Positions 48,843-63,791 of a stretch of DNA of 64,000 nucleotides are shown here, piece after piece. Position numbers and translations under genes: made by a program. The notes under the pieces are model-generated. The model saw only the letters and a program-made list of their open reading frames with translations, ran no database searches and was not told where the DNA came from. The DNA comes from Escherichia coli (GTDB lineage: Bacteria; Pseudomonadota; Gammaproteobacteria; Enterobacterales; Enterobacteriaceae). The number at the start of each line of letters is the position of its first letter. Within the stretch, counting starts at the first letter, position 1. The stretch lies in NCBI GenBank assembly GCA_902500125.1, contig GCA_902500125.1_4132.1. One strand, given 5' to 3'.

Positions 48843-48855
48843 AAAAGATTAAAAA

Positions 48856-48942
48856 AGGGATTGACTCCGGTCAGTCCCTTTGCTATTATATATCCATTGA
48901 GAGATAACTCACTGACCCATAGGGTGCGGAAGTGTATCTATT
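48856..48942 (+). promoter_or_regulatory. composite cassette: terminator hairpin carrying -35, plus U element core
   Basis: TTGACT 48861, TATTAT 48884; core CCCATAGGGTGC 48916-48927; TGTATCTATT 48933-48942. Confidence 0.55.
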
Positions 48943-49863: not shown

Positions 49864-50136
49864 ATGTCCAGCTACTCCGCTACTATGATCATTAAAGATA
49901 TGAACGGTAATCCTACTTCTGCTGGTGGATCATTTGGAAATATTAACTTAGATGGGCGGTTATCCATGCAATCAGCCATCGATGCAGCGAAAGAAGTTTT
50001 TAAGAATGAATGTACTGTTAGTAAGCTGGATTATATGGGTTTCGCTATCGAGAAAACTACTCGTTTTGTGAACTACAAAAATCCACTGATGATTGATACT
50101 AACCTGAAAGCTAACGAAGTGGGGTACTTATTATGA
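49864..50136 (+). CDS. hypothetical protein (90 aa)
   Basis: ORF track; AAGGAAA SD; contains Chi at 49921. Confidence 0.65.
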   Translation: MSSYSATMIIKDMNGNPTSAGGSFGNINLDGRLSMQSAIDAAKEVFKNECTVSKLDYMGFAIEKTTRFVNYKNPLMIDTNLKANEVGYLL

Positions 50137-50324
50137 CAGTAGAAGAAGTAAAAAAAGTACTGGCAGTACTACGATATCATAATCATTGCAAGGTGAAGAA
50201 TGATCCTGATTATCTTGATTCATCCCTGGAGGAAGACACCTTGAACGCTATAAGCCATATGCAGACATTAGCAAAGCGTATGACTGAAAAGAACATGCCG
50301 GACTATATCGGAAATAAAATTTAA
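50133..50324 (+). CDS. hypothetical protein (63 aa)
   Basis: ATGA-coupled to previous gene. Confidence 0.6.
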   Translation: MTVEEVKKVLAVLRYHNHCKVKNDPDYLDSSLEEDTLNAISHMQTLAKRMTEKNMPDYIGNKI

Positions 50325-50331
50325 AAAGTAC

Positions 50332-50393
50332 TTGCATTGTAGTTAGATTAACGTATAATGTTTTATATCGAGAGGGGGAAATGGTTTCCCCTC
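50332..50393 (+). promoter_or_regulatory. PeSL-like cassette
   Basis: TTGCAT 50332; TATAAT 50354; hairpin 50372-50393. Confidence 0.7.
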
Positions 50394-50411
50394 AAGTCCA
50401 GGAGATACACA

Positions 50412-50675
50412 ATGAACACTATCGAAATCACTATCAATGCACACGTATACGACAACGTAGTACTGCAAACTACTATGACCGCTAATGATACCAGTACTTT
50501 GCGGAATACTGTTATTAGTGCCGTATGTGCTGCAATCGGTGATGTATCCCTGGAAAATGCAGAACATATCAACAACGGTTTCACTATGTGCAAGCGTGAT
50601 AACGCAAAACATATCATCGTGGAAGGTTACGGCGGTGTAGAATTTAATGTTTATATGAAAAAAGTACTTGCATAA
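50412..50675 (+). CDS. hypothetical protein (87 aa)
   Basis: Trimmed from 50358 to ATG 50412 after AGGAGA; C-terminus KKVLA* is encoded by the next cassette's AAAAAAGTACTTGCATAA. Confidence 0.65.
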   Translation: MNTIEITINAHVYDNVVLQTTMTANDTSTLRNTVISAVCAAIGDVSLENAEHINNGFTMCKRDNAKHIIVEGYGGVEFNVYMKKVLA

Positions 50676-50724
50676 TAACTAAAACAAAGTATAATGTTTT
50701 GCATAGGGGGAGATATCCTCCCCC
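50668..50724 (+). promoter_or_regulatory. PeSL-like cassette
   Basis: TTGCAT 50668; TATAAT 50690; hairpin GGGGGAG-atatc-CTCCCCC 50706-50724. Confidence 0.7.
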
Positions 50725-50742
50725 ACTAAAAGGAGTAATAAA

Positions 50743-50967
50743 ATGGCTAACTTTGATGAACTGATGCGGGAAGTAGCTAACCTGGCAGAAGAGAAGAAAT
50801 CATTCGATTCTATCTATAACACCGCTCACCGTGATTCAGTACTGGCATGTAACCAGGATCAAAAAGATGAACTAATCGCCACCTATCATGAAGCATGGAA
50901 GTACTACCGACAATGGGAGAAAGAAGAAAGTGAGTCTACCATTGACGGCCTCAATAATCTAATCTAA
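50743..50967 (+). CDS. hypothetical protein (74 aa)
   Basis: ORF track; AAGGAG SD. Confidence 0.65.
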   Translation: MANFDELMREVANLAEEKKSFDSIYNTAHRDSVLACNQDQKDELIATYHEAWKYYRQWEKEESESTIDGLNNLI

Positions 50968-50986
50968 AAGTTTTATTTCAGTACTA

Positions 50987-51015
50987 TTGACATAGCTTGA
51001 TAGTACTGATGTAAT
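50987..51015 (+). promoter_or_regulatory. class-2 promoter
   Basis: AGTACTATTGACA: TTGACA 50987, 17 nt, TGTAAT 51010. Confidence 0.55.
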
Positions 51016-51043
51016 AACTTTACTAACTACAAGGGGAAACATA

Positions 51044-51301
51044 ATGGATCAGTTCACACAATATCGGGTAAATCCTCAAGCTATGGCCTACGTAGAAGAC
51101 CATAAAACGTTACCAGTACTGCAACCAGTTAAAGGCCATATCTATCGTGCAATGTCGTGGTGTGCGGCCCAGGATGGCTATAAAACCGTAGCCGTTGGTA
51201 TGTACTGCGGTAATGGTGAATGGTTTGATCCAAATAATCCGGTATCCATTGACAGTACTGAAAAAATGAAATGGGCCGACTACATCGAAGATATTTCATA
51301 A
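51044..51301 (+). CDS. hypothetical protein (85 aa)
   Basis: ORF track; AGGGGAAA upstream. Confidence 0.65.
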   Translation: MDQFTQYRVNPQAMAYVEDHKTLPVLQPVKGHIYRAMSWCAAQDGYKTVAVGMYCGNGEWFDPNNPVSIDSTEKMKWADYIEDIS

Positions 51302-51308
51302 AAACTAT

Positions 51309-51369
51309 TTGACAGTACTAACCAGTAATGTATAATGTTTTACATAGAGCGGGGGAATAGTTCTCCCGC
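51309..51369 (+). promoter_or_regulatory. PeSL-like cassette
   Basis: TTGACA 51309; TATAAT 51331; hairpin 51349-51369. Confidence 0.7.
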
Positions 51370-51391
51370 CAATAGTTTGGAGTAAAACATT

Positions 51392-51592
51392 ATGTCTATC
51401 GCTATCGCCCTGGTTGAAGTACTGAAAGAAGCTAAAGCCAACCAGATCGACGTAAAGATCCAGGAACTACAAAACGGCTTAATCGGCTGTACTTGTACCG
51501 CTGGTGGAGCGGCAGACTATCGAGAACACGAATCACTCGAATCACTGGTTCGGTATCTTACCATGATCGTTGATGATTGGAGAATCATCTAA
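51392..51592 (+). CDS. hypothetical protein (66 aa)
   Basis: ORF track; GGAG SD; contains Chi at 51500. Confidence 0.65.
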   Translation: MSIAIALVEVLKEAKANQIDVKIQELQNGLIGCTCTAGGAADYREHESLESLVRYLTMIVDDWRII

Positions 51593-51608
51593 CAAAAAAG
51601 AATAAAAA

Positions 51609-51687
51609 AGGGATTGACTCCGGTCAGTCCCTTTGCTATTATATACGCATAGACAAAAACTAGCCCACAGGGTGCATAGGTGTATCC
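51609..51687 (+). promoter_or_regulatory. composite cassette: terminator hairpin carrying -35, plus U element core
   Basis: TTGACT 51614, TATTAT 51637; core GCCCACAGGGTGC 51663-51675; TGTATCC 51681; Chi 51722-51729 follows. Confidence 0.55.
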
Positions 51688-51754
51688 AAAATATATAGTT
51701 AATAACGGTGAGTAACTATCTGCTGGTGGAACTAAAACTATTAATAAAAAAGTA

Positions 51755-51816
51755 TTGACAAAGTATATCAGTACTGCAATAATGTATCTCGTAGGGCGGC
51801 AATGGTGCGACGGCCC
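51755..51816 (+). promoter_or_regulatory. promoter + weak stem-loop (degenerate PeSL)
   Basis: TTGACA 51755; -10 CAATAAT near 51777; GC-rich imperfect hairpin 51794-51816. Confidence 0.45.
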
Positions 51817-51836
51817 ACAAAGTTAGGAGATTCAAA

Positions 51837-52169
51837 ATGACTACTTCAATCGCTATCGTTAAAGCTTTCATCCGTACTAATGTTTCCTCTGTATTCATCG
51901 ACGGCCTCGACCGTAACGTAGAATACTCAATCATTATCGCACAAACGGCAAACGGTTCTCGGTACATCCTGAATGATAGTGAAGCAAATCACTACTACTT
52001 CACTAAAGCCACTGGCTTTAAACGCATCGATGCTGATGTAGTATACGCTAAGATGAATAAGCTGGTAGACAAGATTAACGCGAAAGGTACTATCGATTTA
52101 CAGTACTGGACCGAAACCGATCCAGAATATGGATCTCACCGCTACCTGAATCCAGGTATTAAAATGTAA
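51837..52169 (+). CDS. hypothetical protein (110 aa)
   Basis: ORF track; AGGAGA SD. Confidence 0.65.
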   Translation: MTTSIAIVKAFIRTNVSSVFIDGLDRNVEYSIIIAQTANGSRYILNDSEANHYYFTKATGFKRIDADVVYAKMNKLVDKINAKGTIDLQYWTETDPEYGSHRYLNPGIKM

Positions 52170-52176
52170 AAAGTAC

Positions 52177-52238
52177 TTGCATAGTACTTAGAATCAAGTA
52201 TAATGTTTTACATAGAGAGGGGGAAATGGTTCTCCCTC
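52177..52238 (+). promoter_or_regulatory. PeSL-like cassette
   Basis: TTGCAT 52177; TATAAT 52199; hairpin 52217-52238. Confidence 0.7.
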
Positions 52239-52258
52239 CTAAATTAAGGAGTTTTATC

Positions 52259-52660
52259 ATGACCTTCTCAATCAATTCCTTCGCTGACGTTTTAGTACTG
52301 GCCCGGACTTTTGGTAAAGCTGGCCTTGAACACGCTGTAAGTAATGGTCATATGCACCCTGAATATTGCCGCATCATTGGAAGCTGTAAACGTTGGGCCG
52401 TGTCCCGTAACATTGAGATTGAAAACTTCAATGACGGTAACAACGAATATACAGTTGATGCAGTATTCGAATCCGTTGATCTCGGCGGTATCTATAACAC
52501 TAACCTGAATGATGTGCGTATCGTTCGCACGGGGTTCGGTGCTTATGATGTATCTATCCGTGAAGCTATGGACAAGGGATACATTAGCAAGGACCAGTTA
52601 GCTTACATCATGCAGCAAACTAAGGAACGTAACGAAGCACGTACTATCTTAGGGCTGTAA
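52259..52660 (+). CDS. hypothetical protein (133 aa)
   Basis: Trimmed from 52226 to ATG 52259 after AAGGAG. Confidence 0.65.
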   Translation: MTFSINSFADVLVLARTFGKAGLEHAVSNGHMHPEYCRIIGSCKRWAVSRNIEIENFNDGNNEYTVDAVFESVDLGGIYNTNLNDVRIVRTGFGAYDVSIREAMDKGYISKDQLAYIMQQTKERNEARTILGL

Positions 52661-52684
52661 GCAATACACATCACCAAACATCAT

Positions 52685-52704
52685 AGGCCGCTCTCTAGCG
52701 GCCT
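52685..52704 (+). terminator. GC hairpin, possible terminator
   Basis: AGGCCGCT-ctct-AGCGGCCT; no T tract. Confidence 0.4.
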
Positions 52705-52728
52705 TAACTATATCAGGAGGGCATACAT

Positions 52729-52938
52729 ATGTTCTATACAGTATACAGCGTTCTAGGCACTATTGCAGGCGTACATGATAACGTCGATAGTGCTATGCGT
52801 ACAGTACTGCAACAGGTTCCACTAAAGCCTAAGACCATTAAGCAGATGACAGCACGACTAACCAGGGCGACGGCTGGCGTGGAAGTATGGCAGGACTATG
52901 GGGATACACAGATAATCGTAAGCGTAACGAAGGATTAA
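52729..52938 (+). CDS. hypothetical protein (69 aa)
   Basis: ORF track; AGGAGG SD; last gene of the GC-richer block. Confidence 0.65.
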   Translation: MFYTVYSVLGTIAGVHDNVDSAMRTVLQQVPLKPKTIKQMTARLTRATAGVEVWQDYGDTQIIVSVTKD

Positions 52939-52967
52939 TGCGTAAAAGGATTTAGTACTGAATCATA

Positions 52968-53030
52968 AAAAAGTCAAGGCATTTTTAAAAATCAGCGTTA
53001 AAAAAATGCATAGGTAATCCCTTGACTTTT
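52968..53030. repeat. 11-bp inverted repeat pair
   Basis: AAAAGTCAAGG ... CCTTGACTTTT separated by about 40 nt in a non-coding gap. Confidence 0.6.
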
Positions 53031-53129
53031 ATGAATAAAAAGGGATTGGACTATGGCAAAATGCGTAGGGGGCTTAACTGCGGGTAACCTTAGCGACTTC
53101 GATAAAGGGGTATTACTAATAAAATGTTA

Positions 53130-53157
53130 TTGACTTTTTATACGAATCGTATATTAT
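53130..53157 (+). promoter_or_regulatory. sigma70-like promoter for the family B array
   Basis: TTGACT 53130-53135, 16 nt, TATTAT 53152-53157. Confidence 0.5.
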
Positions 53158-53187
53158 AGGATTGATATTATTTTTAATGGAGTCCCT

Positions 53188-53385
53188 ATGCGTATTTTAA
53201 CTCAAGCAGAACATCACGAAAGACTTATCAATAACATGGCATATATCCTACATATGTCACATATCCGTGGTATTGCATATAAGCGTGAATTGGTTATGGC
53301 ACTATTCATTGGAACTAACTTTCAGGAAAGGTATGTCAAGGATTGGATTTCATATTTAATTGAAGATATAACGGGTAAACTATGA
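53188..53385 (+). CDS. family B small protein (65 aa)
   Basis: GGAG SD; motif FIGTNFQERYVKDWISYLIEDI. Confidence 0.65.
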   Translation: MRILTQAEHHERLINNMAYILHMSHIRGIAYKRELVMALFIGTNFQERYVKDWISYLIEDITGKL

Positions 53386-53590
53386 AAATTATCACACAAT
53401 TTCAACTATATAATCTTATGATCGAATATAGAAAGAATATATATATATACCAGATGAGTTATCTAGGGATGAAAAAAAGTTTATTCTATCGGAGTGGTGG
53501 ATGATGGCTGGACTGGGAACCAACTTCCAAGAAAGTTTTGTTAATGATTGGATTTTACATTTAATAAAAGATATAAAGAGTAAACAATGA
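53382..53590 (+). pseudogene. family B member disrupted at an (AT)7 run
   Basis: ATG 53382 (ATGA-coupled) gives MKIITQFQLYNLMIEYRKNIYIY. The conserved C-half (..SEWWMMAGLGTNFQESFVNDWILHLIKDI) is in another frame. The switch lies in ATATATATATATAT 53436-53449. Confidence 0.55.
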
Positions 53591-53796
53591 AAACTATAAC
53601 ACGAACCCAATCATTAGGTCTTATCTTGAAATACATGGACTTAATGTTGGATATCAGCAAAGACCTTCCTAAAACTGAAATCCAAGTTGCAAGAGCAGAG
53701 ATCCGCATGTTGGCTGTACTGAACACAAACCATCAGGAAGATTATGTTGAAGAATGGATTCGATTTTTAATAGAAGATATAAAGAGTAAATTATGA
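53587..53796 (+). CDS. family B small protein (69 aa)
   Basis: ATGA overlap; VLNTNHQEDYVEEWIRFLIEDI. Confidence 0.65.
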   Translation: MKTITRTQSLGLILKYMDLMLDISKDLPKTEIQVARAEIRMLAVLNTNHQEDYVEEWIRFLIEDIKSKL

Positions 53797-54008
53797 TTAT
53801 TATAGAAAACTCATATCAATATACTGAACGCATCGCTGCCAGACAACTTGAAATCCTCATAATATACGAAGAGACTTCTGATTTAAACTTAGCCGAGGTA
53901 TTGGAAAATGATATACTATTGGGTGCATTCTTAGGAACAGACTATCAGAAGTATTATGAGGAAAAGTATTTGTCATCTCTTGAGAAATATATCAGGAGCA
54001 AATTATGA
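53793..54008 (+). CDS. family B small protein (71 aa)
   Basis: ATGA overlap; FLGTDYQKYYEEKYL. Confidence 0.65.
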   Translation: MIIIENSYQYTERIAARQLEILIIYEETSDLNLAEVLENDILLGAFLGTDYQKYYEEKYLSSLEKYIRSKL

Positions 54009-54217
54009 TTTTTTTAACACCAGAAGAATATAAGAAACGTTTCAATTCCGCACAGGGTGAAATCTTACTTATATACCTTTCAAATGCAGACCTTAACTTA
54101 TCAAGGGTATTAGAAAAAGATTTACTTATGGGTGCATTCCTTGATACAGACTTTCAGGTGTATTATGTAGGGGAATACTTAATTGCACTTCAGAATTATA
54201 TCAGGAGTAAACTATGA
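54005..54217 (+). CDS. family B small protein (70 aa)
   Basis: ATGA overlap; FLDTDFQVYYVGEYL. Confidence 0.65.
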   Translation: MIFLTPEEYKKRFNSAQGEILLIYLSNADLNLSRVLEKDLLMGAFLDTDFQVYYVGEYLIALQNYIRSKL

Positions 54218-54441
54218 AACATTTAAGTAATTCCGAGAAGAATAAAATTATCATTGCTGCAATAAACAAATATTTTACACTTCCTCACAAAGAAGGTTTA
54301 TGTATAAGAGAACACAGGATAAACACCACCGATATACGCATGATGGCTGTACTGGGGACGAACTTCCAGGAAGAGTATGTTATTGCACACATAGTTGCAC
54401 TCAAGAATTACATTATGGACAAATGTAATGAACATCATTAA
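54214..54441 (+). CDS. family B small protein (75 aa)
   Basis: ATGA overlap; VLGTNFQEEYVIAHI. Confidence 0.65.
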   Translation: MKHLSNSEKNKIIIAAINKYFTLPHKEGLCIREHRINTTDIRMMAVLGTNFQEEYVIAHIVALKNYIMDKCNEHH

Positions 54442-54652
54442 TAACTTTGAATACGAGGCCCGTGCTAAGAGTGCCAGAAAAAAAGAGAACACCATTTACT
54501 TCACTATGATGTACTTACAATGGACTGAAATTGAAGAAAAGGTTGCTGAAGTATGGATGTTGGAATTCATGGGGACGCAGTATCAGAATAGGTTTGCGGG
54601 TGAGTATATCAATGTTCTTATGAAACAAATAGAAAGAAAGGAAAAGAACTAA
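54428..54652 (+). CDS. family B small protein (74 aa)
   Basis: ORF 54395 trimmed to ATG 54428; FMGTQYQNRFAGEYI. Confidence 0.6.
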   Translation: MNIINNFEYEARAKSARKKENTIYFTMMYLQWTEIEEKVAEVWMLEFMGTQYQNRFAGEYINVLMKQIERKEKN

Positions 54653-54810
54653 TGGTTTTCATTAACATATCTGACCAACTCGATACTAAACTAGAAGTCG
54701 AGCAGAGTGAGGGATGGATGTTGTACTTTCTTGGAACTTCTCATCAGAATTTTTATATCCATGAACACATAGTTGCACTCACAAATCTAATAAGGGATAA
54801 ATGTAAATGA
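54652..54810 (+). CDS. family B small protein, short (52 aa)
   Basis: Not in ORF track; TAATG junction; FLGTSHQNFYIHEHI. Confidence 0.55.
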   Translation: MVFINISDQLDTKLEVEQSEGWMLYFLGTSHQNFYIHEHIVALTNLIRDKCK

Positions 54811-55064
54811 AACACTTGACGAACGATGAATATTCACTTAGAATTCGAAAGCTCACCCCAGAAGCAAGAGTAATCTACGATGACGATGCACTTTCATGGA
54901 ACGAGATGAAAGTTAAAGTTCATGAGCTATGGTTGCTGTACTTTGTGGGAACCCAATATCAAGAGAAATATTGTACCGATTATCTTGAACAACTAATGGA
55001 TCTTATACAGATAAAACTAAATGAACGAATTGTGGAAAAATATGAAAACTTTATCAAGCACTGA
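54807..55064 (+). CDS. family B small protein (85 aa)
   Basis: ATGA overlap; FVGTQYQEKYCTDYL. Confidence 0.65.
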   Translation: MKHLTNDEYSLRIRKLTPEARVIYDDDALSWNEMKVKVHELWLLYFVGTQYQEKYCTDYLEQLMDLIQIKLNERIVEKYENFIKH

Positions 55065-55293
55065 GTATCAAACTGCCCTCTTCTCCCTTCTAAACACCCT
55101 CCGCACGAACAATAAACTTTATAATTCCCGTGAAGCTGATATCGTCAACGCTGATGTATATCTTAATAAATTCATAGGGACTAACTATCAAGAACTGTTC
55201 ACTCTACGATATATCGCTGCATTGAGAAACGAAATATCAGATAAAACCCGTCAAGCCAGAAGAGAATGGAATAAACAATGCGACAAAGACTAA
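55042..55293 (+). CDS. family B small protein (83 aa)
   Basis: ORF 55021 trimmed to ATG 55042 (either is possible); FIGTNYQELFTLRYI. Confidence 0.55.
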   Translation: MKTLSSTEYQTALFSLLNTLRTNNKLYNSREADIVNADVYLNKFIGTNYQELFTLRYIAALRNEISDKTRQARREWNKQCDKD

Positions 55294-55514
55294 ATCACAA
55301 AATGTATTGTAAACTATTGCAGACACTGGCACAGAAACACTATGACACTGTATCTGAAATATTACCCTATGATATCATGCGTTTAATTCATAGTGAGGCA
55401 GAGATGCTTGTACTGATGACAGGCACTGATAAAAAAGCAATTGCCAAATCAATAGATATGTTCATCGAAGCACAATGTCAACACATTAGAACCGAGATAT
55501 GGAGACGAGAATGA
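55278..55514 (+). CDS. family B-related small protein, divergent (78 aa)
   Basis: Position and size fit the array; motif degraded (LMTGTDKKAIAKSI). Confidence 0.55.
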   Translation: MRQRLNHKMYCKLLQTLAQKHYDTVSEILPYDIMRLIHSEAEMLVLMTGTDKKAIAKSIDMFIEAQCQHIRTEIWRRE

Positions 55515-55726
55515 TAACACTAAATGAGTTTCAGTATCATTGGAGGTTACAAACTATCAAATCAAAAGTGTATAGTATTGTGTTAAACAAATCTATTGCA
55601 CAAGAGGACAAATGTGTTATAATAGCTGAAATGAAGTTGGGTGCTTTCGTAGGGACAAACTATCAAAACATCTACACTGACGTATTGTTAAGTGCCTTAC
55701 GTAACAAGGTGGTATCCAAAATATGA
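55511..55726 (+). CDS. family B small protein (71 aa)
   Basis: ATG 55511 is 6 nt after GGAG and ATGA-coupled (ORF track 55499); FVGTNYQNIYTDVLL. Confidence 0.6.
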   Translation: MITLNEFQYHWRLQTIKSKVYSIVLNKSIAQEDKCVIIAEMKLGAFVGTNYQNIYTDVLLSALRNKVVSKI

Positions 55727-55941
55727 GAAATTTACAAGGCTTTGAATACATCAGACTCCTGAAAACATGCACCAGCAGAAGGAAAATCTTATCAAGCGAT
55801 AAGAGCATCCAAGCTAACCTTAAGCACGCACTAGTAACTGAACTCTATGTAGGTGCACTCTTAGGCACAAACTATCAACAAATGTATGTGGATCTATGGA
55901 TTGACGCTCTACAGAAAGAGGTTAAAAGTAAATGCAAATGA
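55723..55941 (+). CDS. family B small protein (72 aa)
   Basis: ATGA overlap; LLGTNYQQMYVDLWI. Confidence 0.65.
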   Translation: MRNLQGFEYIRLLKTCTSRRKILSSDKSIQANLKHALVTELYVGALLGTNYQQMYVDLWIDALQKEVKSKCK

Positions 55942-56150
55942 TTAATTTAAGTAAAGATGAATATTATGAACGTCTTGCAAAAACTTATCCAGCACGTAAG
56001 GCCGTTTATGATAGTCACATTATTGAACGCTCAAAGAAGTTGATTGTAGTAAATGAGATTAAGATGCTTTCAGTCTTAGGAACAAACTATCAAGAGAATG
56101 CTGTACTGTTGTTAATTGATGCCCTCCAGAGAGAGATACAAAGTAAATGA
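55932..56150 (+). CDS. family B small protein (72 aa)
   Basis: ATGCAAATGA junction (alternative ATG 55938); VLGTNYQENAVLLLI. Confidence 0.6.
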   Translation: MQMINLSKDEYYERLAKTYPARKAVYDSHIIERSKKLIVVNEIKMLSVLGTNYQENAVLLLIDALQREIQSK

Positions 56151-56395
56151 TTCATTTATCTTACCATGATTATCAAAAACGTTTAAATGCATCAAGGGAT
56201 ATAAGGATTCAAATCTTCAATAACAAAAAATTGAAACCTGACACCAGAAGAATCAAAATGATAGAAGCAGAGTTATGCAACTTCCTGGGGACGAACTATC
56301 AGGCAGGTAAGGTAAAAAACTATCTTAGAGAACTAATGATTTGTATCGAAAATAAATGTGAGGTTGATGAACATGCAAATGATCAATTTAAGTAA
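56147..56395 (+). CDS. family B small protein (82 aa)
   Basis: ATGA overlap; FLGTNYQAGKVKNYL. Confidence 0.65.
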   Translation: MIHLSYHDYQKRLNASRDIRIQIFNNKKLKPDTRRIKMIEAELCNFLGTNYQAGKVKNYLRELMICIENKCEVDEHANDQFK

Positions 56396-56636
56396 AGATG
56401 AATATACCGAGCGTATGACAAAAATTACGCACAAACGTAATACAATCTATCACAACCCAGAAATTCAACACAGTAAGAAAATGATTATGATGCGTGAGTT
56501 AAAGATGGGTGTATTCTTGGGAACAAACTATCAAGAGCCAGAAGTAAATCGATTAATTGCTGAGTTACTATTGGAAATCAAAGGTAAGCTGTACTTTCAT
56601 CAAATGACCCAGCCACTGAGGTGTACTGATCGATGA
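56373..56636 (+). CDS. family B small protein (87 aa)
   Basis: ORF 56358 trimmed to ATG 56373 (MQMINLSKDEY, as in 55932); FLGTNYQEPEVNRLI. Confidence 0.6.
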   Translation: MQMINLSKDEYTERMTKITHKRNTIYHNPEIQHSKKMIMMRELKMGVFLGTNYQEPEVNRLIAELLLEIKGKLYFHQMTQPLRCTDR

Positions 56637-56884
56637 ATGCGATGAATATTGTGAATAACATCAGATTAGCAGAAAGATTTGATAGAATTGGGGAAGCACT
56701 GAGAAGATACGATAAAGAATATGGTCATTTGAGCTTTTCTATAGAAAAGAGATATGAACTTGAAGCAGAGTTTAAAATGCAGAGTCTCTTAGGCACACAG
56801 TATCAAAACCAATATATTCAAACTTGGATTGATTGTTTAATCCAGACAATTTACGTAAGAAACATTAAATGCAAAATGAAATGA
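56633..56884 (+). CDS. family B small protein (83 aa)
   Basis: ATGA overlap; LLGTQYQNQYIQTWI. Confidence 0.65.
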   Translation: MNAMNIVNNIRLAERFDRIGEALRRYDKEYGHLSFSIEKRYELEAEFKMQSLLGTQYQNQYIQTWIDCLIQTIYVRNIKCKMK

Positions 56885-57129
56885 TATACTTAACCTATAA
56901 TGAATACGTCGAGAGATTAGTTCGTGCCAAGAGATATACCAATAAACGTCCAATTGACCTAAACCAAACCCCAGCAGAAAGGAGTGCAGAAGTATTATTC
57001 CAATCACTACCATATCTTCTGGGAACTGATAGACAAGAGGAATATGTTGCACGTATGATTAGATATCTTAAAATCACTATTAAGGAAAAAGTAAATGCAA
57101 ATGCAAATGAAATACTTAACAGACGATGA
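56869..57129 (+). CDS. family B small protein (86 aa)
   Basis: LLGTDRQEEYVARMI; alternative ATG 56881. Confidence 0.6.
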   Translation: MQNEMIYLTYNEYVERLVRAKRYTNKRPIDLNQTPAERSAEVLFQSLPYLLGTDRQEEYVARMIRYLKITIKEKVNANANEILNRR

Positions 57130-57352
57130 GTTAAAAGAACGACTAATTAAATCCAGAAAACTTACAAATCAACTTCCAAACGACACAAACAAGTCACATG
57201 CCGAAAGGAGTGCAGAAGTTTTATACATTCAACTCATGTACTTTCTTGGTACTGACAGACAAGAGTATTACATTGAAAGTATGCTTCGATATCTTAAATT
57301 CTCTATAAAGGAAAAGATACATGCTCAAGAATTTAAAAATCCTAACAGTTAA
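57095..57352 (+). CDS. family B small protein (85 aa)
   Basis: FLGTDRQEYYIESML; close paralog of 56869. Confidence 0.6.
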   Translation: MQMQMKYLTDDELKERLIKSRKLTNQLPNDTNKSHAERSAEVLYIQLMYFLGTDRQEYYIESMLRYLKFSIKEKIHAQEFKNPNS

Positions 57353-57563
57353 TGAATATCATAAGATTGTAATGAAAACTAATAGTGAAATTTCTAAAAA
57401 ATCAAACCCAAAGTACATACTGGAACACACATTCGAAGAACGTCAATTAGCTCTAGTTGAAGCAAAACTTCTTGCACTCCTAGGGACTAACTATCAAGAA
57501 GAATACATCAGAAAACTAATATACCTTTTAACTAAACATATAAGAAAAAGAAAAAATGCATGA
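57321..57563 (+). CDS. family B small protein (80 aa)
   Basis: AAGGA SD; LLGTNYQEEYIRKLI. Confidence 0.65.
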   Translation: MLKNLKILTVNEYHKIVMKTNSEISKKSNPKYILEHTFEERQLALVEAKLLALLGTNYQEEYIRKLIYLLTKHIRKRKNA

Positions 57564-57790
57564 AACACTTGACAGATGATGAACATGGGCTTATAGTAAT
57601 GGATGTAATCAACATCGAATACAAAAAGTTGATACGCTACCGTTGTTATGAAGATAAGCAACTCGTTCTAGCAGAACAGAAGTTGTTTCGACTCTTAAAC
57701 ACAAACTTCCAAGCACAATACGAAGAATCGTATATGTACCTTTTGGCGAGGAAAGCAAAAAGAGATTATGAAAATTTTAAGCAAAGGTGA
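57560..57790 (+). CDS. family B small protein (76 aa)
   Basis: ATGA overlap; LLNTNFQAQYEESYM. Confidence 0.65.
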   Translation: MKHLTDDEHGLIVMDVINIEYKKLIRYRCYEDKQLVLAEQKLFRLLNTNFQAQYEESYMYLLARKAKRDYENFKQR

Positions 57791-57983
57791 TTCAGTAATA
57801 TTACTTATAGAGAGTTCAAGTAAATTCTTAAACATAACACTGTCTGATATAGATGAAGATGACAAAGAAGTACTGAGAGCAGATTTAAGAGTACTGTTAC
57901 ATATCGGAACAAACCTACAAGAAGAATATGTAGAGTGCTACATCAATGAACTTAAAGAATTAGTACTGAGAAAATGCAAATGA
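57768..57983 (+). CDS. family B small protein (71 aa)
   Basis: HIGTNLQEEYVECYI. Confidence 0.6.
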   Translation: MKILSKGDSVILLIESSSKFLNITLSDIDEDDKEVLRADLRVLLHIGTNLQEEYVECYINELKELVLRKCK

Positions 57984-58201
57984 AAATCATTACCGATGCA
58001 GAATACCTAACAATCATAAATGGACTGTTTTTGAAGCTCTTCGTCATTAACACATCAGATATACCAGATATGGATAAAATTATTAAGAGAAATGAAGTCT
58101 ATGTTCTAGCTACCCTTGGAACGAACTATCAAGAACACGACATTAAAGATTATATTAATACACTTAAACGAGCGATTGAACTAAAATGCCAAAACCACTA
58201 G
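57974..58201 (+). CDS. family B small protein (75 aa)
   Basis: ATGCAAATGA junction; TLGTNYQEHDIKDYI. Confidence 0.6.
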   Translation: MQMKIITDAEYLTIINGLFLKLFVINTSDIPDMDKIIKRNEVYVLATLGTNYQEHDIKDYINTLKRAIELKCQNH

Positions 58202-58401
58202 GAACAGCAGAATACATTGAACTAATGGGATTACACTTCTCATCCTTTCAGAAACTTATGCGAGAATCAAAGAATGATTTAGAATATACCATCAGAGGTT
58301 CCGATTTAAGAATGCTTCTCACCCTAGACACAGATTCCCAAGAGCGATTTGTCAATGAGCATATTAGAGCACTTTTAATGGAAATTCAAAGTAAACTATG
58401 A
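58186..58401 (+). CDS. family B small protein (71 aa)
   Basis: TLDTDSQERFVNEHI. Confidence 0.6.
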   Translation: MPKPLGTAEYIELMGLHFSSFQKLMRESKNDLEYTIRGSDLRMLLTLDTDSQERFVNEHIRALLMEIQSKL

Positions 58402-58613
58402 AGGTAATATCAAATCAAGAGTACTTGGCACTATTCAGGAAGAATAATCACAAATATATGGCACTTGATTCAAGAACTGATATAAGTGAACTTGAAAAAA
58501 ATCTTTTGCGTTCAGATATGATAGTACTGACACTCTTAGGAACACAGCATCAAGAGAGAACTGTTAATTCACACATAGGGATTCTAATGCAGATAGTACA
58601 GGAAAAGATATGA
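58398..58613 (+). CDS. family B small protein (71 aa)
   Basis: ATGA overlap; LLGTQHQERTVNSHI. Confidence 0.65.
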   Translation: MKVISNQEYLALFRKNNHKYMALDSRTDISELEKNLLRSDMIVLTLLGTQHQERTVNSHIGILMQIVQEKI

Positions 58614-58831
58614 GAATCATAACACAACAAGATATTCTTAAGTTCACAAGGGTTCATGCATCTGAATTTGATGCTATATTATCAAAAAGTTACAACAACC
58701 CTTATACAGAAGATGTACACTACAATGAATTATGGGTGTATATACTTTTAGGTACAGATCATCAAGAGCAAGCAGTACAGAAGTATTTGTTAGCTTTACG
58801 TGATGCTACTGCTAATGGAGTACGTGTTTAA
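58610..58831 (+). CDS. family B small protein (73 aa)
   Basis: ATGA overlap; LLGTDHQEQAVQKYL. Confidence 0.65.
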   Translation: MRIITQQDILKFTRVHASEFDAILSKSYNNPYTEDVHYNELWVYILLGTDHQEQAVQKYLLALRDATANGVRV

Positions 58832-58832
58832 T

Positions 58833-59075
58833 ATGAAAGTACTGACAGAACTAGAAATGTATCATAGATTTAATAAGTACTATCATTTACTTAAGCCTAT
58901 ACAGAGGATTAAATGTCCATTTGAAGAGAAACAGGTATTAATTTATGAGCATAAGTTATTTGTATCATTAGGTACAGATCAACAAGAGTACTATTTGACG
59001 TTGTACTTGATTACATTAATAGATTTAATTTACTATAAAACCAAACAAGCTAATAAAGAGAAATATGAAAACTAA
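58833..59075 (+). CDS. family B small protein (80 aa)
   Basis: ORF 58800 trimmed to ATG 58833, 1 nt after previous stop; SLGTDQQEYYLTLYL. Confidence 0.6.
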   Translation: MKVLTELEMYHRFNKYYHLLKPIQRIKCPFEEKQVLIYEHKLFVSLGTDQQEYYLTLYLITLIDLIYYKTKQANKEKYEN

Positions 59076-59409
59076 TATACAACTCAAGGTATATAAATCA
59101 TTTGAACATACATATATCAAAAGTAGTCTATGTAGAGATGTAATGGATTACAAGGGTAAGCCATTCACAATTACTTATGATTCTTATGTTGATGATTTAT
59201 ATATATCATTTGTTAATTACGAAAATAAAATATACAAGCACGTTGATATTAAAGATTTAAGTACTTTATCACCAGAGGAATACTTCCAGGAATCATTAGT
59301 ATGGGATTTAGAGTTCCCTATGCCATTAGTACATAAGATGATAGTACTAATGAAAGAATCTAAACAGGAGCCTAATAGTGCTTATGAAGAACACATTATT
59401 GAGTATTAA
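59065..59409 (+). CDS. family C protein, short form (114 aa)
   Basis: Motif LSPEEYFQESLVWDLEFPMPLVHKM. Confidence 0.65.
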   Translation: MKTNIQLKVYKSFEHTYIKSSLCRDVMDYKGKPFTITYDSYVDDLYISFVNYENKIYKHVDIKDLSTLSPEEYFQESLVWDLEFPMPLVHKMIVLMKESKQEPNSAYEEHIIEY

Positions 59410-59779
59410 GAGTACTGATAATATTAAGAGTTATACAAGCTCAAGTACTGTGACAATCGAAGTGAATTCTATTAATGCTGGTAATGCAGTAGATAAGTTC
59501 TTTATTGCTCAAGGGTACAGGAAAGATATTCATCAATATTGTTCAGTATATGGGGAGTACAATAGTACTGAAGATATAATTTATTGGTCAACACATCAAG
59601 ATTATCTAACTAAAATTGGAGTCCCAGATGTTAGTACTTTATCTGAAGAAGAATACTTTCAGTACAGCTTAATATGTGATGTACCTATACCTTTAGGGTT
59701 AATCAAGGGTATACAGGAAGAGGTTCATAAGCTTAAATCCATGAGTAAAGGTACTTTCATTAGAACAGTGCAATACTAG
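59378..59779 (+). CDS. family C protein (133 aa)
   Basis: GTG 59378 is 9 nt after AGGAG (alternative ATG 59384); LSEEEYFQYSLICDVPIPLGLIKG. Confidence 0.6.
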   Translation: MLMKNTLLSIKSTDNIKSYTSSSTVTIEVNSINAGNAVDKFFIAQGYRKDIHQYCSVYGEYNSTEDIIYWSTHQDYLTKIGVPDVSTLSEEEYFQYSLICDVPIPLGLIKGIQEEVHKLKSMSKGTFIRTVQY

Positions 59780-59780
59780 C

Positions 59781-59809
59781 TTGACAGTACTTTTCATTAC
59801 TGATATAGT
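59781..59809 (+). promoter_or_regulatory. sigma70-like promoter
   Basis: TTGACA 59781, 17 nt, TATAGT 59804. Confidence 0.5.
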
Positions 59810-59838
59810 ACACTAACGTTAATCATAGGGTAAAAATT

Positions 59839-60084
59839 ATGTTAAATTTTTTAAATTTCCTTATCGTTTTGTGTATTGTTCTTGGGATTGCACCATTTGT
59901 ATTGTATTTCATGGATTCAGATGAAATGCAGAAGATGAATTGTACAAGGACAGGACAGAGTAGAGAAGAGACGATTCTTATGCCTGTTACGGTTATTGTT
60001 AACAACATGCCCATTACAAACATGGTCCCTACCCTAACGACAACGTACCAGTACTCTTGTGCTGACGGAGAGAGGTGGAGATGA
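59839..60084 (+). CDS. membrane protein (81 aa)
   Basis: ORF track; N-terminal TM MLNFLNFLIVLCIVLGIAPFVLYF. Confidence 0.6.
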   Translation: MLNFLNFLIVLCIVLGIAPFVLYFMDSDEMQKMNCTRTGQSREETILMPVTVIVNNMPITNMVPTLTTTYQYSCADGERWR

Positions 60085-60401
60085 AATTTAATATAGCAAA
60101 AACATCGAGTATATGTATTTTTGGTTATGCAGAAGAGTTAGGTGATATTGACATTCTTTTGTACAAAAAGGATGGTGTTATGCATTTCAAGTACCAGGAT
60201 GAAGAGGCAGACAATTATCTTTTACCTAATTTAGTACAAATGCAGGAAGAGGAATTATTCCAGTACAGCTTAGTATACGACATTGATATTTGCACGATGC
60301 CAGTACTAATTAGTATTCAAAAAGTGATGCTCGATATGTATGATAAGCTAATACAAGGTACATCAGGGAGAATCATTGAAATCGATATACAAGACAATTA
60401 A
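60075..60401 (+). CDS. family C protein, short form (108 aa)
   Basis: GGTGGAG SD; QEEELFQYSLVYDIDICTMPVLISIQK. Confidence 0.65.
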   Translation: MEMKFNIAKTSSICIFGYAEELGDIDILLYKKDGVMHFKYQDEEADNYLLPNLVQMQEEELFQYSLVYDIDICTMPVLISIQKVMLDMYDKLIQGTSGRIIEIDIQDN

Positions 60402-60594
60402 TCAAGAATGGAAGACCCAAAAGTACAGGGAATTCAACAGGAATTTTACAAAAGATGCATTGAATTTAAAAACAACAGAGTTTGATATGTTTATTTTTCT
60501 TGGAACACGTTCACAAGAACAATTTGTTCATTATTATATAAATTCGTTGCGAACGGAGATAGTATGCAAAACACAGGGTATTATAAAAAGGTAA
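60376..60594 (+). CDS. family B-like small protein (72 aa)
   Basis: TTG start 5 nt after GGGAG (no in-frame ATG until codon 46); FLGTRSQEQFVHYYINSL. Confidence 0.5.
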   Translation: MKSIYKTINQEWKTQKYREFNRNFTKDALNLKTTEFDMFIFLGTRSQEQFVHYYINSLRTEIVCKTQGIIKR

Positions 60595-60830
60595 ACCAAT
60601 ATTTGTACGCTACAAAGTACAGGGATTTTTGTTTAAAGGGTGGTGATGAAGATTTTTCTTTGCGATTATCAGAATTTAATCTGTTATTTTATCTTGGTAC
60701 AAAAGAACAAGAAGAAATGGCACAGAAATTTATCAAGCACCTTTTACAAAAAATTAATATGCAAATTTTGATGCTTAAGTTACAGAATGAGATAAATGAA
60801 TATGAATCCAGAAATAGTACAGGATCTTAA
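60564..60830 (+). CDS. family B-like small protein (88 aa)
   Basis: GGAGAT SD; YLGTKEQEEMAQKFIKHL. Confidence 0.6.
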   Translation: MQNTGYYKKVNQYLYATKYRDFCLKGGDEDFSLRLSEFNLLFYLGTKEQEEMAQKFIKHLLQKINMQILMLKLQNEINEYESRNSTGS

Positions 60831-61188
60831 ACAAGTAATATTCCTTTTGAATACCAGAAGTGAATTGTATACAGAGTTAAAAGAGATTAATGCATTTTAT
60901 CAGAATTTTGTAATCCAAGAGTTCAGTGATTTAATTACAGATGCATTATTTGAATTCTCGGAGAAATACAAAGGAACAGAGTTCAGTGTTAAGAATGTTA
61001 TTCGTCCAAGTACAAGGAAAATTATATTATCACATTTTACATTTGACAATAAAGATTTATTCAGTCATAATCCAAGTACAGCTTTATATTTTATTCCTGA
61101 TTCAGACAAAAATCATCCTATTCATTACGGATGGATTTTGTCATATATAGTACAAGGAAAGGAGTATCCTATTAAATGGAAAGATTAG
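60796..61188 (+). CDS. hypothetical protein (130 aa)
   Basis: ORF track. Confidence 0.6.
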   Translation: MNMNPEIVQDLKQVIFLLNTRSELYTELKEINAFYQNFVIQEFSDLITDALFEFSEKYKGTEFSVKNVIRPSTRKIILSHFTFDNKDLFSHNPSTALYFIPDSDKNHPIHYGWILSYIVQGKEYPIKWKD

Positions 61189-61337
61189 GGCGATTAGATT
61201 ATTACACAATTAATACAAATTATTTGTTGAGTAATATAAAATCCGATTACAAAATATGGATAAAGAACAGAGATAGCATGTGTTATGAATTTTATTTAGA
61301 TTATGCTATCAAACGATTTTTAAGAGAAGAACATTAA
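61176..61337 (+). CDS. small protein (53 aa)
   Basis: Not in ORF track; ATG 61176 after GGAG; ends TAATG into next gene; fills gap. Confidence 0.4.
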   Translation: MERLGRLDYYTINTNYLLSNIKSDYKIWIKNRDSMCYEFYLDYAIKRFLREEH

Positions 61338-61540
61338 TGCAAAAGATTAATACGATAACATTAAATGCATTACAGGATTCATTATTAGATAGTATTAAGA
61401 TGTATTACAATATACATTTGAAGGGTGGTATTGATAATTACGATTATTATTTGAGTTTAATTACATTTGAGCACCTTTCAGTACAGGACAGGATTATACA
61501 TCCTACAAATCCTAGGTATCCATCGATAGGTAAATTATGA
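61337..61540 (+). CDS. hypothetical protein (67 aa)
   Basis: ORF track; TAATG junction. Confidence 0.55.
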   Translation: MQKINTITLNALQDSLLDSIKMYYNIHLKGGIDNYDYYLSLITFEHLSVQDRIIHPTNPRYPSIGKL

Positions 61541-62085
61541 ATGAGATAGATTTATTAGCACACAAGATAAGTACAATAATGCTTATCCTCAATAACAACC
61601 ATCCTATATCGCAGATAGATGGAATCCTGAGTCAGAGGACAGGTGGTAGTTTATATTTGTCCATAAACGCAGATATCGCAAGGAAATACATTGATATTGA
61701 TGTTGAAATCGAATATGATACAACGGGGATTGTTGATGTAGGAGCATTAATCAGTTCAAATCCAGTATCAGCATCCCCATTGACCAAAGATGTTAGTACA
61801 GGATTCGAAGGATATTTGTGGTACAATACCAATGATGATTATTTTATATATCAGCATTCCAATACAAATTATGATGAAGACAAATTTCAGTTCATAGACC
61901 CTTATGATGAAGCTGAAGTATTTCAAAAATCATTAATCACAAAACCGCATGAGATGATGTATCTAATGTTATTCAGTACAATGCATTTGAATCCATTAAT
62001 TAAAGGTTTAAAATTTTATATTCAATTAAATTTAGTCCATGTAGTTTATGATTTATTAATGCAAGGATATAGTTATGAAGTATAA
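61537..62085 (+). CDS. family C protein, long form (182 aa)
   Basis: ATGA overlap; DEAEVFQKSLITKPHEMMYLMLFSTMHLNPL. Confidence 0.65.
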   Translation: MNEIDLLAHKISTIMLILNNNHPISQIDGILSQRTGGSLYLSINADIARKYIDIDVEIEYDTTGIVDVGALISSNPVSASPLTKDVSTGFEGYLWYNTNDDYFIYQHSNTNYDEDKFQFIDPYDEAEVFQKSLITKPHEMMYLMLFSTMHLNPLIKGLKFYIQLNLVHVVYDLLMQGYSYEV

Positions 62086-62386
62086 AATGATGTATACCCC
62101 AGATATGATTTATGTTGAATTAGAAGATGATGACGATGGGTGGAATTTGATTTATTCAAGAAGTTCAGGTTGGTACATGGCACATTTAAATGATTCGATA
62201 GTTACAGATTATTTTGTAGATTTCAATACATTATCCGATGAAGAATTGTTCCAACAGCAATTAGTGATTGACACGGGTGGTTATGATGTCTTATTATTAA
62301 AAAAGATACAAAAAGCTGTTATTGATTTTAAGCCCATGATATGGCAAAGGAAATATTATGACCTCGAAGTACCATACCAGCAATGA
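62075..62386 (+). CDS. family C protein, short form (103 aa)
   Basis: AAGGA SD; LSDEELFQQQLVIDTGGYDVLLLKKIQK. Confidence 0.65.
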   Translation: MKYKMMYTPDMIYVELEDDDDGWNLIYSRSSGWYMAHLNDSIVTDYFVDFNTLSDEELFQQQLVIDTGGYDVLLLKKIQKAVIDFKPMIWQRKYYDLEVPYQQ

Positions 62387-62924
62387 AATTCAGTACACCT
62401 ACGCTAATGCAATCCTTATGGGACAAAAGTTAGCTTGTATTGTTGCAGCCTTATATAATGCCCAGAAATATCACAAGCGTCATTTCCACAAATGTATTGG
62501 TATTATTCCATCGAAGTACAATACATATATTGCGTGCACGAGTCATTTTGATAAACGATTCAATACACCTGATACCCCAAATGCCAGTAGTGTTATTGGT
62601 CTTTTGGATTTCGCACCTGGTGCTGTTATTGGAAAGAATGATTTAGAGTACACATGGTATAATAAAAATGCCCCGTTAGTAATGGGAAAATATGATACAG
62701 AAACGAATAAAACAATAGAGTACAATACATATAAATCAGAGGAAGAATTTTTCCAAGGTTCATTGCTTGTACCAGTGCGTTTGTTGTTTTATAATGTCCT
62801 TATTAGTACAGTACACAATAGTCCATTACACAAGAATCACAAAATTAATTTCAATTTTTGTGCTTATGCGATTGATGGTGTGTATGAGTGTTTAATGGAG
62901 GTATTGAGTTATGAAGCTGAATAA
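62358..62924 (+). CDS. family C protein, long form (188 aa)
   Basis: AAGGA SD; SEEEFFQGSLLVPVRLLFYNVLISTVHNSPL. Confidence 0.65.
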   Translation: MTSKYHTSNEIQYTYANAILMGQKLACIVAALYNAQKYHKRHFHKCIGIIPSKYNTYIACTSHFDKRFNTPDTPNASSVIGLLDFAPGAVIGKNDLEYTWYNKNAPLVMGKYDTETNKTIEYNTYKSEEEFFQGSLLVPVRLLFYNVLISTVHNSPLHKNHKINFNFCAYAIDGVYECLMEVLSYEAE

Positions 62925-63252
62925 TACATTTGATATTAATAAGTTAAGAGAATGGTTTTATAGTATTGAAATTGAAGCCATCCCGTATCATAGATATGAA
63001 CAATATAATTTAACCAGTATTGATATCCGTGAGTTGTACGCGTATTATCAAAGTGCATTAGAGATGCATAAGTTATTTTTGAGTACAGATTTTGTTATAA
63101 ATTACAATTTTGAGGAATTTAATAATTATAATTTAGTACAGAAATATGTAGTAGCAAAGTACATGTACCTTCAAGGAATTACAAGTAATTTGGAATTCAA
63201 TACAGTCCTGGCTTTAGTTGAGGTAATTTTATGCAGTACATGTATGATTTAG
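62911..63252 (+). CDS. hypothetical protein (113 aa)
   Basis: GGAGG SD. Confidence 0.6.
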   Translation: MKLNNTFDINKLREWFYSIEIEAIPYHRYEQYNLTSIDIRELYAYYQSALEMHKLFLSTDFVINYNFEEFNNYNLVQKYVVAKYMYLQGITSNLEFNTVLALVEVILCSTCMI

Positions 63253-63737: not shown

Positions 63738-63762
63738 GATATGGGCTTTTTTCGTTTTGGTA

Positions 63763-63791
63763 TTGACAAAGAAGTGCAAAGCTGTTATCAT
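63763..63791 (+). promoter_or_regulatory. sigma70-like promoter
   Basis: TTGACA 63763, 17 nt, TATCAT 63786; preceded by GGGC + T6. Confidence 0.5.

Follow-up and report, generated by a model that had tools for sequence, protein, structure and literature searches.

AGTACT-free islands beside the predicted terminal repeat of Asteriusvirus jumbo phages carry an oriented one-base variant of the palindrome

Chi (GCTGGTGG) and the FtsK-orienting sequences KOPS stand in one orientation per domain and are read by one-way DNA translocases or nucleases. In phage T7, Meisel et al. reportedly found in 1992 that the EcoP15I sites (CAGCAG) have a single orientation, which is said to block this type III enzyme as it needs two inverse sites. 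The palindrome HIP1 (GCGATCGC) of cyanobacteria reaches 7402 copies in S. elongatus PCC 7942 against 60 expected, lies in coding and non-coding DNA and is thought to arise in situ by mutation, and its absence from a stretch is taken to mean either a recent xenolog or selection against the motif (PMC3025956). Here we describe another palindrome, AGTACT, in a stretch of 64,000 nucleotides deposited under Escherichia coli (assembly GCA_902500125.1, contig GCA_902500125.1_4132.1; hereafter the window), and two neighbouring islands from which it is absent and in which a one-base variant of it accumulates in a single orientation. The window is 89-97% identical in DNA to the Asteriusvirus E. coli jumbo phages G17, Sharanji, PBECO4, 121Q and SP27, and it comes from an Asteriusvirus, a Rak2-like jumbo phage with a genome of roughly 370 kb. 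Sharanji, a relative about 95% identical, was used for comparison with a complete genome (350 kb), and the island pattern was looked for in seven Asteriusvirus sequences including the window, Sharanji, A4, Turkey5, JNE01, 121Q and vB_Ec-M-J.

AGTACT is the commonest hexamer of the window, with 278 copies in the 64 kb against 20.8 expected from dinucleotide-preserving shuffles (about 13-fold). A motif scan placed consecutive copies at 52954-52959 and 57869-57874, 4915 bp apart from start to start, with none in between. The motif-free interval proposed in the initial annotation is thus confirmed, together with its match to 21 open reading frames of a paralogous family called here family B (53188-57790) and the presence inside it of TGTACT (10 copies) and GGTACT (1 copy); the flanking sites listed there exist, although their coordinates were one to four bases off (52953, 57868, 57886 and 57963 for 52954, 57869, 57890 and 57962). 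The gap is about four times the second-largest one, which lies outside the islands and measures 1189 bp. At the mean density of the window, the probability of finding no AGTACT in 4.9 kb is about 5e-10, and uniform random placement of the sites yielded a 4.9-kb gap in 0 of 200,000 trials. A second AGTACT-free stretch was detected nearby, with the last site at 60302-60307 and none through the window end. The region is organized as follows.

52960-57868: island 1, 4909 bp, no AGTACT, 14 GTAC (10 TGTACT and 1 GGTACT, + strand)
57869-60307: intervening segment, 2.4 kb, 17 AGTACT (7/kb) and six + strand AGTACA
60308-64000: first 3.7 kb of island 2, which continues past the window end; no AGTACT, 33 GTAC

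In Sharanji, 902 AGTACT were counted against 119 expected (7.6-fold), and only two gaps exceed 2.2 kb, of 7722 and 5378 bp, the third largest being 2103 bp. Both lie just inside the left direct terminal repeat (DTR); the 5378-bp gap is the homologue of island 1 and the 7722-bp gap begins 2.4 kb further on. Since similar gaps are rare in Sharanji, island 1 is one of a unique pair. How common such gaps are genome-wide had been left by the initial annotation as a point on which its reading could fall: they are not common, but the one other gap, close by and larger, had been missed, as had the position of the left edge at the terminal-repeat junction and the strand-specific one-base variant that replaces the motif. 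The map of Sharanji, in distances from the left end, reads as follows.

0-20.7 kb: terminal repeat, 4-11 AGTACT per kb
20.7-25.9 kb: island 1, no AGTACT, 2-3 TGTACT per kb
25.9-28.3 kb: intervening segment, 16 AGTACT sites
28.3-36.0 kb: island 2, no AGTACT, 4-8 AGTACA per kb
Beyond 36 kb: rest of the genome, 5-10 AGTACT per kb, settling to 2-3 per kb

We looked at the words that fill the islands. In an unbiased ranking by enrichment, TGTACT came first among the hexamers of island 1 in the window, in Sharanji and in A4 (about 9 times over composition), while AGTACA, CAGTAC and GTACAG led the enrichment of island 2 in Sharanji and A4 (15-19 times). TGTACT is the reverse complement of AGTACA; islands 1 and 2 thus carry one asymmetric element in opposite directions. 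Among the GTAC of island 1 in the window, just one is an AGTAC-x besides the ten TGTACT and the single GGTACT.

53715, 54348, 54510, 54722, 54937, 55409, 56102, 56590, 56622 and 57237 (starts; + strand, within 53715-57242): the ten TGTACT of island 1

The base preceding GTACT is T in 10-11 of 11 cases in island 1 of the window and never A, while A precedes it in 71% of cases elsewhere (Fisher p=1.6e-6); taken genome by genome, T was found in 6-11 cases and A in none. The part of island 2 inside the window contains 24 AGTAC, 23 of which read AGTACA, and GTACT occurs 0 times. Over six genomes, AGTAC is followed by T in 0 of about 245 cases in island 2 (24 in the window, 46 in Sharanji, 56 in A4, 36 in Turkey5, 42 in JNE01 and 41 in 121Q), against 69% outside the islands (Fisher p=1e-21). 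The ratio of AGTACA to TGTACT on the + strand of Sharanji is about 41-43:0 in island 2 (50:1 over its two 5-kb bins) and 1:10 in island 1; outside the islands it is 222:176, as base composition predicts and without preference for the coding strand. AGTACA occurs in all three frames of island 2 (7/6/5), in unrelated genes as well, and at some places where the change from T to A alters the amino acid. The variants of both islands keep the flanks of AGTACT, with C at -1 and G at +6. Six of the ten TGTACT share one spot 5' of the L-G-T codons of family B, in two frames (A/L-V-L and L/M-Y-F); at this same spot, family B members B21 and B24 have AGTACT, and island 1 makes no use of synonymous changes by which AGTACT would arise, for example GCT-GTA-CTG to GCA-GTA-CTG. 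The variant sites are conserved above control hexamers (14/15 for TGTACT, 13/19 for AGTACA), TGTACT being kept in 6/7 cases against A4 and 8/8 against vB_Ec-M-J, with control hexamers at 0.45 and 0.60. Altogether, the AGTAC-T and GTACT statistics, the frame independence, the flanks and the conservation show that, in the islands, the complete palindrome is selected against and a single oriented derivative is selected for. Loss of old AGTACT sites through whichever mutation does least harm was considered and rejected: it predicts frame-dependent AGCACT, AGTATT and BGTACT, yet one variant dominates all frames. The polarity switches at about 57.25-57.41 kb, within family B genes of the ordinary kind. 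The data do not support a replication origin between the islands, as the segment is fully coding, the switch falls in ordinary genes and the skew follows gene-family composition only.

Outside the islands, AGTACT behaves as a signal of the DNA itself. Coding copies in the window are spread over all three frames (54/52/40), and the density is 8/kb in non-coding DNA, intergenic or promoter, against 3.4/kb in coding DNA; 82% of the Sharanji copies are within genes, and no sharp peak relative to gene starts or stops was seen in that genome. The flanks favour C at -1 and G at +6, with G at -1 and C at +6 depleted, and in its longer versions, CAGTACTG and TTCAGTACTGAA, the motif is a perfect DNA palindrome, as is typical of dimer sites. 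Between the window and Sharanji (95.7% identity), 215 of 227 AGTACT are intact against a mean of 85% for 315 frequent control hexamers, and identity per base reaches 0.98 in the motif against about 0.955 in its flanks. The sites are also spaced more evenly than chance would have it (coefficient of variation 0.75-0.83 against 0.99 at random), and the largest gap over a stretch of 314 kb is 2.1 kb against about 3.3 kb in random placement; this even spacing suggests a process that needs a site every 1-2 kb. Two phages of other genera share the enrichment over 50 kb, Klebsiella phage RaK2 (119 against 17 expected, 7x) and Pectobacterium phage CBB (266 against 17, 16x), AGTACT being the top or a near-top enriched word in both, so that enrichment of 7-16-fold extends over three genera. 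These results show that (C)AGTACT(G) is a selected DNA-level signal genome-wide. Promoters were rejected as its full explanation: about 20-35 of the 142 sites in the DTR stand beside the promoter elements AGTACTTGCAA or AGTACTGTATAAT, set against the coding location of most sites and the absence of a peak at gene ends noted above. Likeness to the SlmA, LexA or TrpR operators was also rejected, since the flanking positions speak against it, with depletion of G at -1 and of C at +6. Relatives encode three methyltransferases, according to their annotation and the Sharanji paper. No mention of the AGTACT motif was found in a partial coverage of the literature that included the Sharanji, CBB, G17 and RaK2 papers, which is no proof of novelty.

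All seven Asteriusvirus sequences examined have island 1 in an identical position and in an unchanged motif state, and the pattern of island 2 was likewise found in Sharanji, A4, Turkey5, JNE01 and 121Q. In Turkey5 and JNE01, both islands are present though the region can no longer be aligned with the window at the nucleotide level, and the array and its motif state are common to lineages more than 20% different in DNA. The 28 family B paralogs have a mean amino-acid identity of 24% and a maximum of 53%, and splitting them at 57.8 kb gives 0.25 within the front, 0.25 within the back and 0.23 between, that is no separate groups. In their other oligonucleotide signatures the islands match the resident genome: GCGC is absent (0 against 8.9 expected), and CCGG and CGCG show the same depletion as in the bulk. 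The GC content of island 1 is that of the genome (0.34). In relative synonymous codon usage, island 1 correlates with the bulk genome at 0.77 and island 2 at 0.73, and the DTR does no better; in tetranucleotide usage, the correlation is 0.49-0.56 in island 1 (9th-19th percentile) and 0.38-0.53 in island 2. The different history that the initial annotation had supposed for the front of the family B array is therefore borne out as a different selective regime. Among the origins it offered, selection against the site fits, with GTACT preceded by T and not A, AGTACT-creating synonymous changes unused and the state kept in seven sequences, while a recent acquisition finds no support, the array being present in all examined Asteriusvirus and sharing the GCGC avoidance of the genome.

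To place the left edge of island 1, two independent records were aligned with the window. Base 1 of vB_Ec-M-J corresponds to window position 32398, and the feature that this record labels 'Direct Terminal Repeats' (1-21525) ends at about 53092; the G17 record has its first base at 53090 and its last at 32398, and the G17 assembly with both repeats was based on read coverage (G17 paper). The two records agree, and by homology the repeat would occupy 32398-53090. The window would then be a collapsed junction, with the right end of the unique DNA followed by the repeat and then by the left end of the unique DNA.

32398-53090: direct terminal repeat, 20.7 kb, single collapsed copy, 142 AGTACT (6.9/kb)
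52954-52959: last AGTACT before island 1, 16 bp past the last DTR gene (52729-52938) and about 131 bp inside the DTR end
53130-53157, + strand: promoter-like site TTGACT-16-TATTAT (consensus scan), with the DTR end 40 bp upstream and the first family B gene 30 bp downstream

As the last AGTACT falls so close to the repeat end, and the promoter-like site and family B come next, island 1 would start at the junction between repeat and unique DNA. The same arrangement was found in 121Q and vB_Ec-M-J.

We propose that these are two conserved 'polarity islands' extending from the junction of the DTR and the unique DNA, in which the palindrome is selected against and swapped for its one-base asymmetric derivative, in one orientation in each island; we hold this with middling confidence, as an even call. 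TGTACT on the coding strand of island 1 amounts to AGTACA on the other strand, and island 2 has AGTACA on the coding strand. The palindrome shows the same word on both strands and the derivative on one only. A reader of (C)AGTACT(G) would thus act on both strands nearly everywhere else, engage only the bottom strand in island 1 and only the top strand in island 2, and the arrays beside the left terminal repeat would be marked or processed strand-specifically. Such a reader could be a DNA-binding protein working as a dimer, or an enzyme that acts once on each strand, for instance a methyltransferase or a nickase. By our own reasoning, the change from T to A alters the major but not the minor groove, a difference by which one reader could discriminate and another could not. 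The density peak in the DTR and the AGTACT-bearing repeats at its start (described below) point to a role in genome ends, replication, packaging or genome-wide protein binding.

Several observations weigh against this proposal. Base composition predicts just 1.1-1.7 AGTACT in the 4.9 kb of island 1 (P0=0.18-0.33) and 0.9-2.5 in island 2, where none was found. The zero of island 1 is striking against the enrichment of the genome and not against random sequence, and taken alone it is weak evidence; the case for active avoidance is carried by the variant statistics and not by this count. The enrichment of TGTACT amounts to about ten sites, and the six at one homologous position lie where V-L and Y-F codons favour GTAC. 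Island 2 has the lowest tetranucleotide-usage correlation of the genome (0.38). No non-coding region, repeat or skew change was seen to mark the polarity switch at 57.25-57.41 kb. Finally, no AGTACT-free island was found in RaK2 and CBB, though the palindrome is present there, and the arrays are specific to Asteriusvirus, which leaves some weight on an old insertion with a history of its own.

Such a lineage-specific insertion, which would have placed the two paralog arrays at the DTR junction in the ancestor of Asteriusvirus, would never have gained the AGTACT enrichment, and the variants would be by-products of amino-acid and codon usage. It accommodates most of the points just listed, namely the palindrome without islands in CBB and RaK2, the mere 1-2 or so AGTACT expected per island, the shared codon position of six TGTACT and the atypical tetranucleotide usage of island 2, to which its intermediate third-position GC can be added, and it agrees with a tblastn search that found family B only in Asteriusvirus (36 records). 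We nevertheless consider it unlikely, if worth keeping in mind. By-products of coding do not account for the 15-18x enrichment of AGTACA across all three frames and unrelated genes of island 2, nor for the complete lack of T after AGTAC over six genomes though T makes up about 30% of bases, and the variants share the C(-1)/G(+6) flanks that the motif has genome-wide. The pattern outlasts sequence turnover beyond alignability, the islands share the absolute avoidance of GCGC, and paralogs at 24% identity have had ample time to equilibrate. A recent tandem amplification, from a founder gene that lacked the motif by chance, had been suggested by the initial annotation and is refuted: the island is indeed a head-to-tail array of one gene family, but the low identity of its members, the absence of separate front and back clades, and an array and motif state common to lineages so different in their DNA all speak against it.

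Reading at the RNA level is a further possibility, with AGUACU recognized on transcripts, for instance by an RNA-binding protein or endoribonuclease of phage or host that sets mRNA lifetime, and with promoter-poor array operons escaping it. The motif is frame-independent with 82% of sites in transcribed coding DNA, both islands are transcribed from the + strand, and island 1 resembles one long operon from the promoter-like site at 53130. Despite this common transcribed strand, the islands use the reverse-complementary variants UGUACU and AGUACA, which fits an oriented DNA element and is unexplained for RNA, and which makes an RNA reader less likely. Moreover, AGTACT is densest in intergenic and promoter DNA, CAGTACTG and TTCAGTACTGAA look like dimer sites as perfect DNA palindromes, AGTACA and TGTACT show no coding-strand preference outside the islands, and mere escape would not enrich one particular variant; we rate this explanation as quite improbable. 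The islands might also be a zone of restriction avoidance in DNA that enters the cell before protection is made, the host enzyme being of ScaI type and cutting AGTACT. The first-step-transfer DNA of phage T5 is reportedly free of EcoRI sites, the islands are near one physical genome end, and other palindromes are strongly avoided (GCGC, 0 against 292 expected). However, AGTACT is densest in the terminal repeat, which separates the islands from the genome end, about 900 sites are present genome-wide, and the enrichment of one oriented variant is not accounted for, so that we give this explanation very little chance.

Returning to the proposed oriented element, a more far-reaching version, which we offer only as a long shot, is that in Rak2-like jumbo phages AGTACT marks both strands for a clade-specific DNA transaction, for which strand nicking, priming, the loading of a helicase or clamp, and methylation are candidates. 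The palindrome would allow this transaction on either strand everywhere, and the islands would be a built-in polarity device that restricts its start to a single strand. From island 1 it would proceed leftward over the terminal repeat, and from island 2 rightward into the genome, and it could duplicate the terminal repeat during concatemer processing or set the direction of replication near the genome end.

The genes of the islands and of their neighbourhood were also examined.

53188-57790, + strand: 21 family B genes of 52-92 amino acids, tightly packed, with overlapping stop and start codons and an L-G-T-x-x-Q-E motif
57768-59075: family B members 22-27, in the intervening segment with three second-family genes and a small membrane-protein gene
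60376-60830, + strand: two family B-like genes in island 2, each with AGTACA at the homologous K-Y-R codon position

The profile of PHROG 4148, of unknown function, matched 26 of the 28 family B members (best E-value 1.8e-24), and no Pfam match was found for the family. An AlphaFold model of a family B protein is a three-helix bundle (pLDDT, the predicted local distance difference test, 97), with no significant fold match in PDB and, in BFVD, matches to its own relatives only. By analogy with other genes beside terminal repeats, family B may possibly have a role in host takeover. The promoter-like site before the array is without AGTACT and was the sole good candidate before 57569 in the consensus scan; as good candidates were found at 53130 and 57569 only, island 1 probably forms a single operon. 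A second paralog family (103-188 amino acids, 'EE-x-FQ-x-SL' motif) fills much of 59065-60401 and 61537-63737, its members carrying AGTACT in the intervening segment and AGTACA only in island 2. Just upstream of the terminal repeat, family A (27920-32114) is a tandem array of paralogs of 60-75 amino acids that, in contrast to family B, is dense in AGTACT (about 8/kb), the copies often being formed by E/Q-Q-Y-Y codons close to the N-terminus. The region 18562-27816 holds eight - strand paralogs of 245-411 amino acids, annotated in relatives as RCC1-repeat or 'DNA condensation' proteins, and this region has the lowest AGTACT density of the window outside the islands. The third-position GC of Sharanji codons drops with distance from the left end, from 0.37 in the repeat to 0.35 in island 1, 0.32 in the intervening segment, 0.30 in island 2, 0.275 in the next 24 kb and 0.227 in the bulk genome. 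In RaK2 (NC_019526, 230-280 kb), AGTACT stands at 5-9/kb at 230-244 kb and then at 1-3/kb; after this dense early region, + strand AGTACA outnumbers TGTACT (81 to 40) with no complete motif-free island, and the drop may be a milder form of the island arrangement.

The DTR contains about 50 small + strand genes and consensus sigma-70-type promoters; RpoD-like promoters have been described in and near the repeat of CBB (PMC5259590). Its gene-free first 1.7 kb (32398-34150) includes a 53-bp tandem repeat (2.6 copies, 33949-34084), whose unit carries two AGTACT (TTCAGTACTGAATAATAGTACT), and short repeats of the CTGGATGG type at 33206-33329, and these repeats may serve in end recognition or packaging. 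At 48854-48881 and 51607-51634 stand two identical 28-bp hairpins (AAAGGGATTGACTCCGGTCAGTCCCTTT), each embedding a TTGACT -35-like hexamer, so that a terminator-like stem overlaps a promoter-like site, and a related hairpin lies at about 53020-53052, just before the repeat end. Unlike the remaining genome, the DTR is not depleted for GGCC, CCGG, CGCG and GATC; it is strongly depleted for CTAG (19 against 68 expected), and few parts of the genome have a less typical tetranucleotide usage. GCGC is absent from the window (0 against 64 expected), from the 350 kb of Sharanji (0 against 292) and from 50 kb of CBB, and 24 GC-rich palindromic hexamers have zero copies in the window; this is extreme restriction-site avoidance. 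A scan of the window found no tRNAs, and no Rfam family was found across 31.8-64 kb. Six records labelled 'Campylobacter phage' match 50000-60000 by megablast, an unexpected host label for an E. coli jumbo phage.

Rak2-like jumbo phages are among the largest phages and are candidates for phage therapy, and more than 80% of their genes are without known function. About 900 evenly spaced AGTACT under purifying selection, in at least three genera, imply an undescribed system that reads the phage DNA genome-wide. The islands are natural mutants of this signal: they designate position 6, T versus A, as the critical base, and they show that orientation matters and that the neighbourhood of the terminal repeat is treated differently. 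The function of AGTACT is open to simple tests, such as binding to CAGTACTG versus CAGTACAG, and the islands offer a means of finding the physical genome ends in Asteriusvirus assemblies from sequence only.

Compared with the systems introduced above, the islands resemble Chi and KOPS in that an asymmetric short motif keeps a single orientation over a domain and switches orientation at a defined point. Chi and KOPS are asymmetric genome-wide and switch at the replication origin and dif, whereas the phage polarity is confined to two domains of 3-8 kb, switches in ordinary genes, involves a one-base derivative of a palindrome used elsewhere and implicates no translocase. The EcoP15I sites of T7 are likewise asymmetric sites in one orientation in a phage genome; they are uniform over the whole genome, whereas the remainder of the Asteriusvirus genome is full of the palindrome, that is of both orientations at once, and evasion of a type III enzyme therefore cannot be its genome-wide logic. 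The T5 pre-early region and the SPO1 terminal redundancy are alike in having a long repeat with small genes and strong host-type promoters followed by further early genes, a likeness that concerns the neighbourhood of the island and not the island itself, and we know of no motif-switch zone beside the repeat of either phage. To our knowledge, there is also no known case of a genome-wide palindrome swapped for an oriented one-base derivative in domains beside a terminal repeat, and no such derivative has, as far as we know, been reported in the motif-free stretches of HIP1. The island pattern is real, statistically robust and conserved, and apparently undescribed so far in the literature searched. 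HIP1 and AGTACT are both short palindromes hugely over-represented in coding and non-coding DNA; AGTACT differs as an evenly spaced viral hexamer, compared with a cellular octamer, and its motif-free stretches do not look clearly foreign and are filled at the same density with a strand-oriented one-base derivative.

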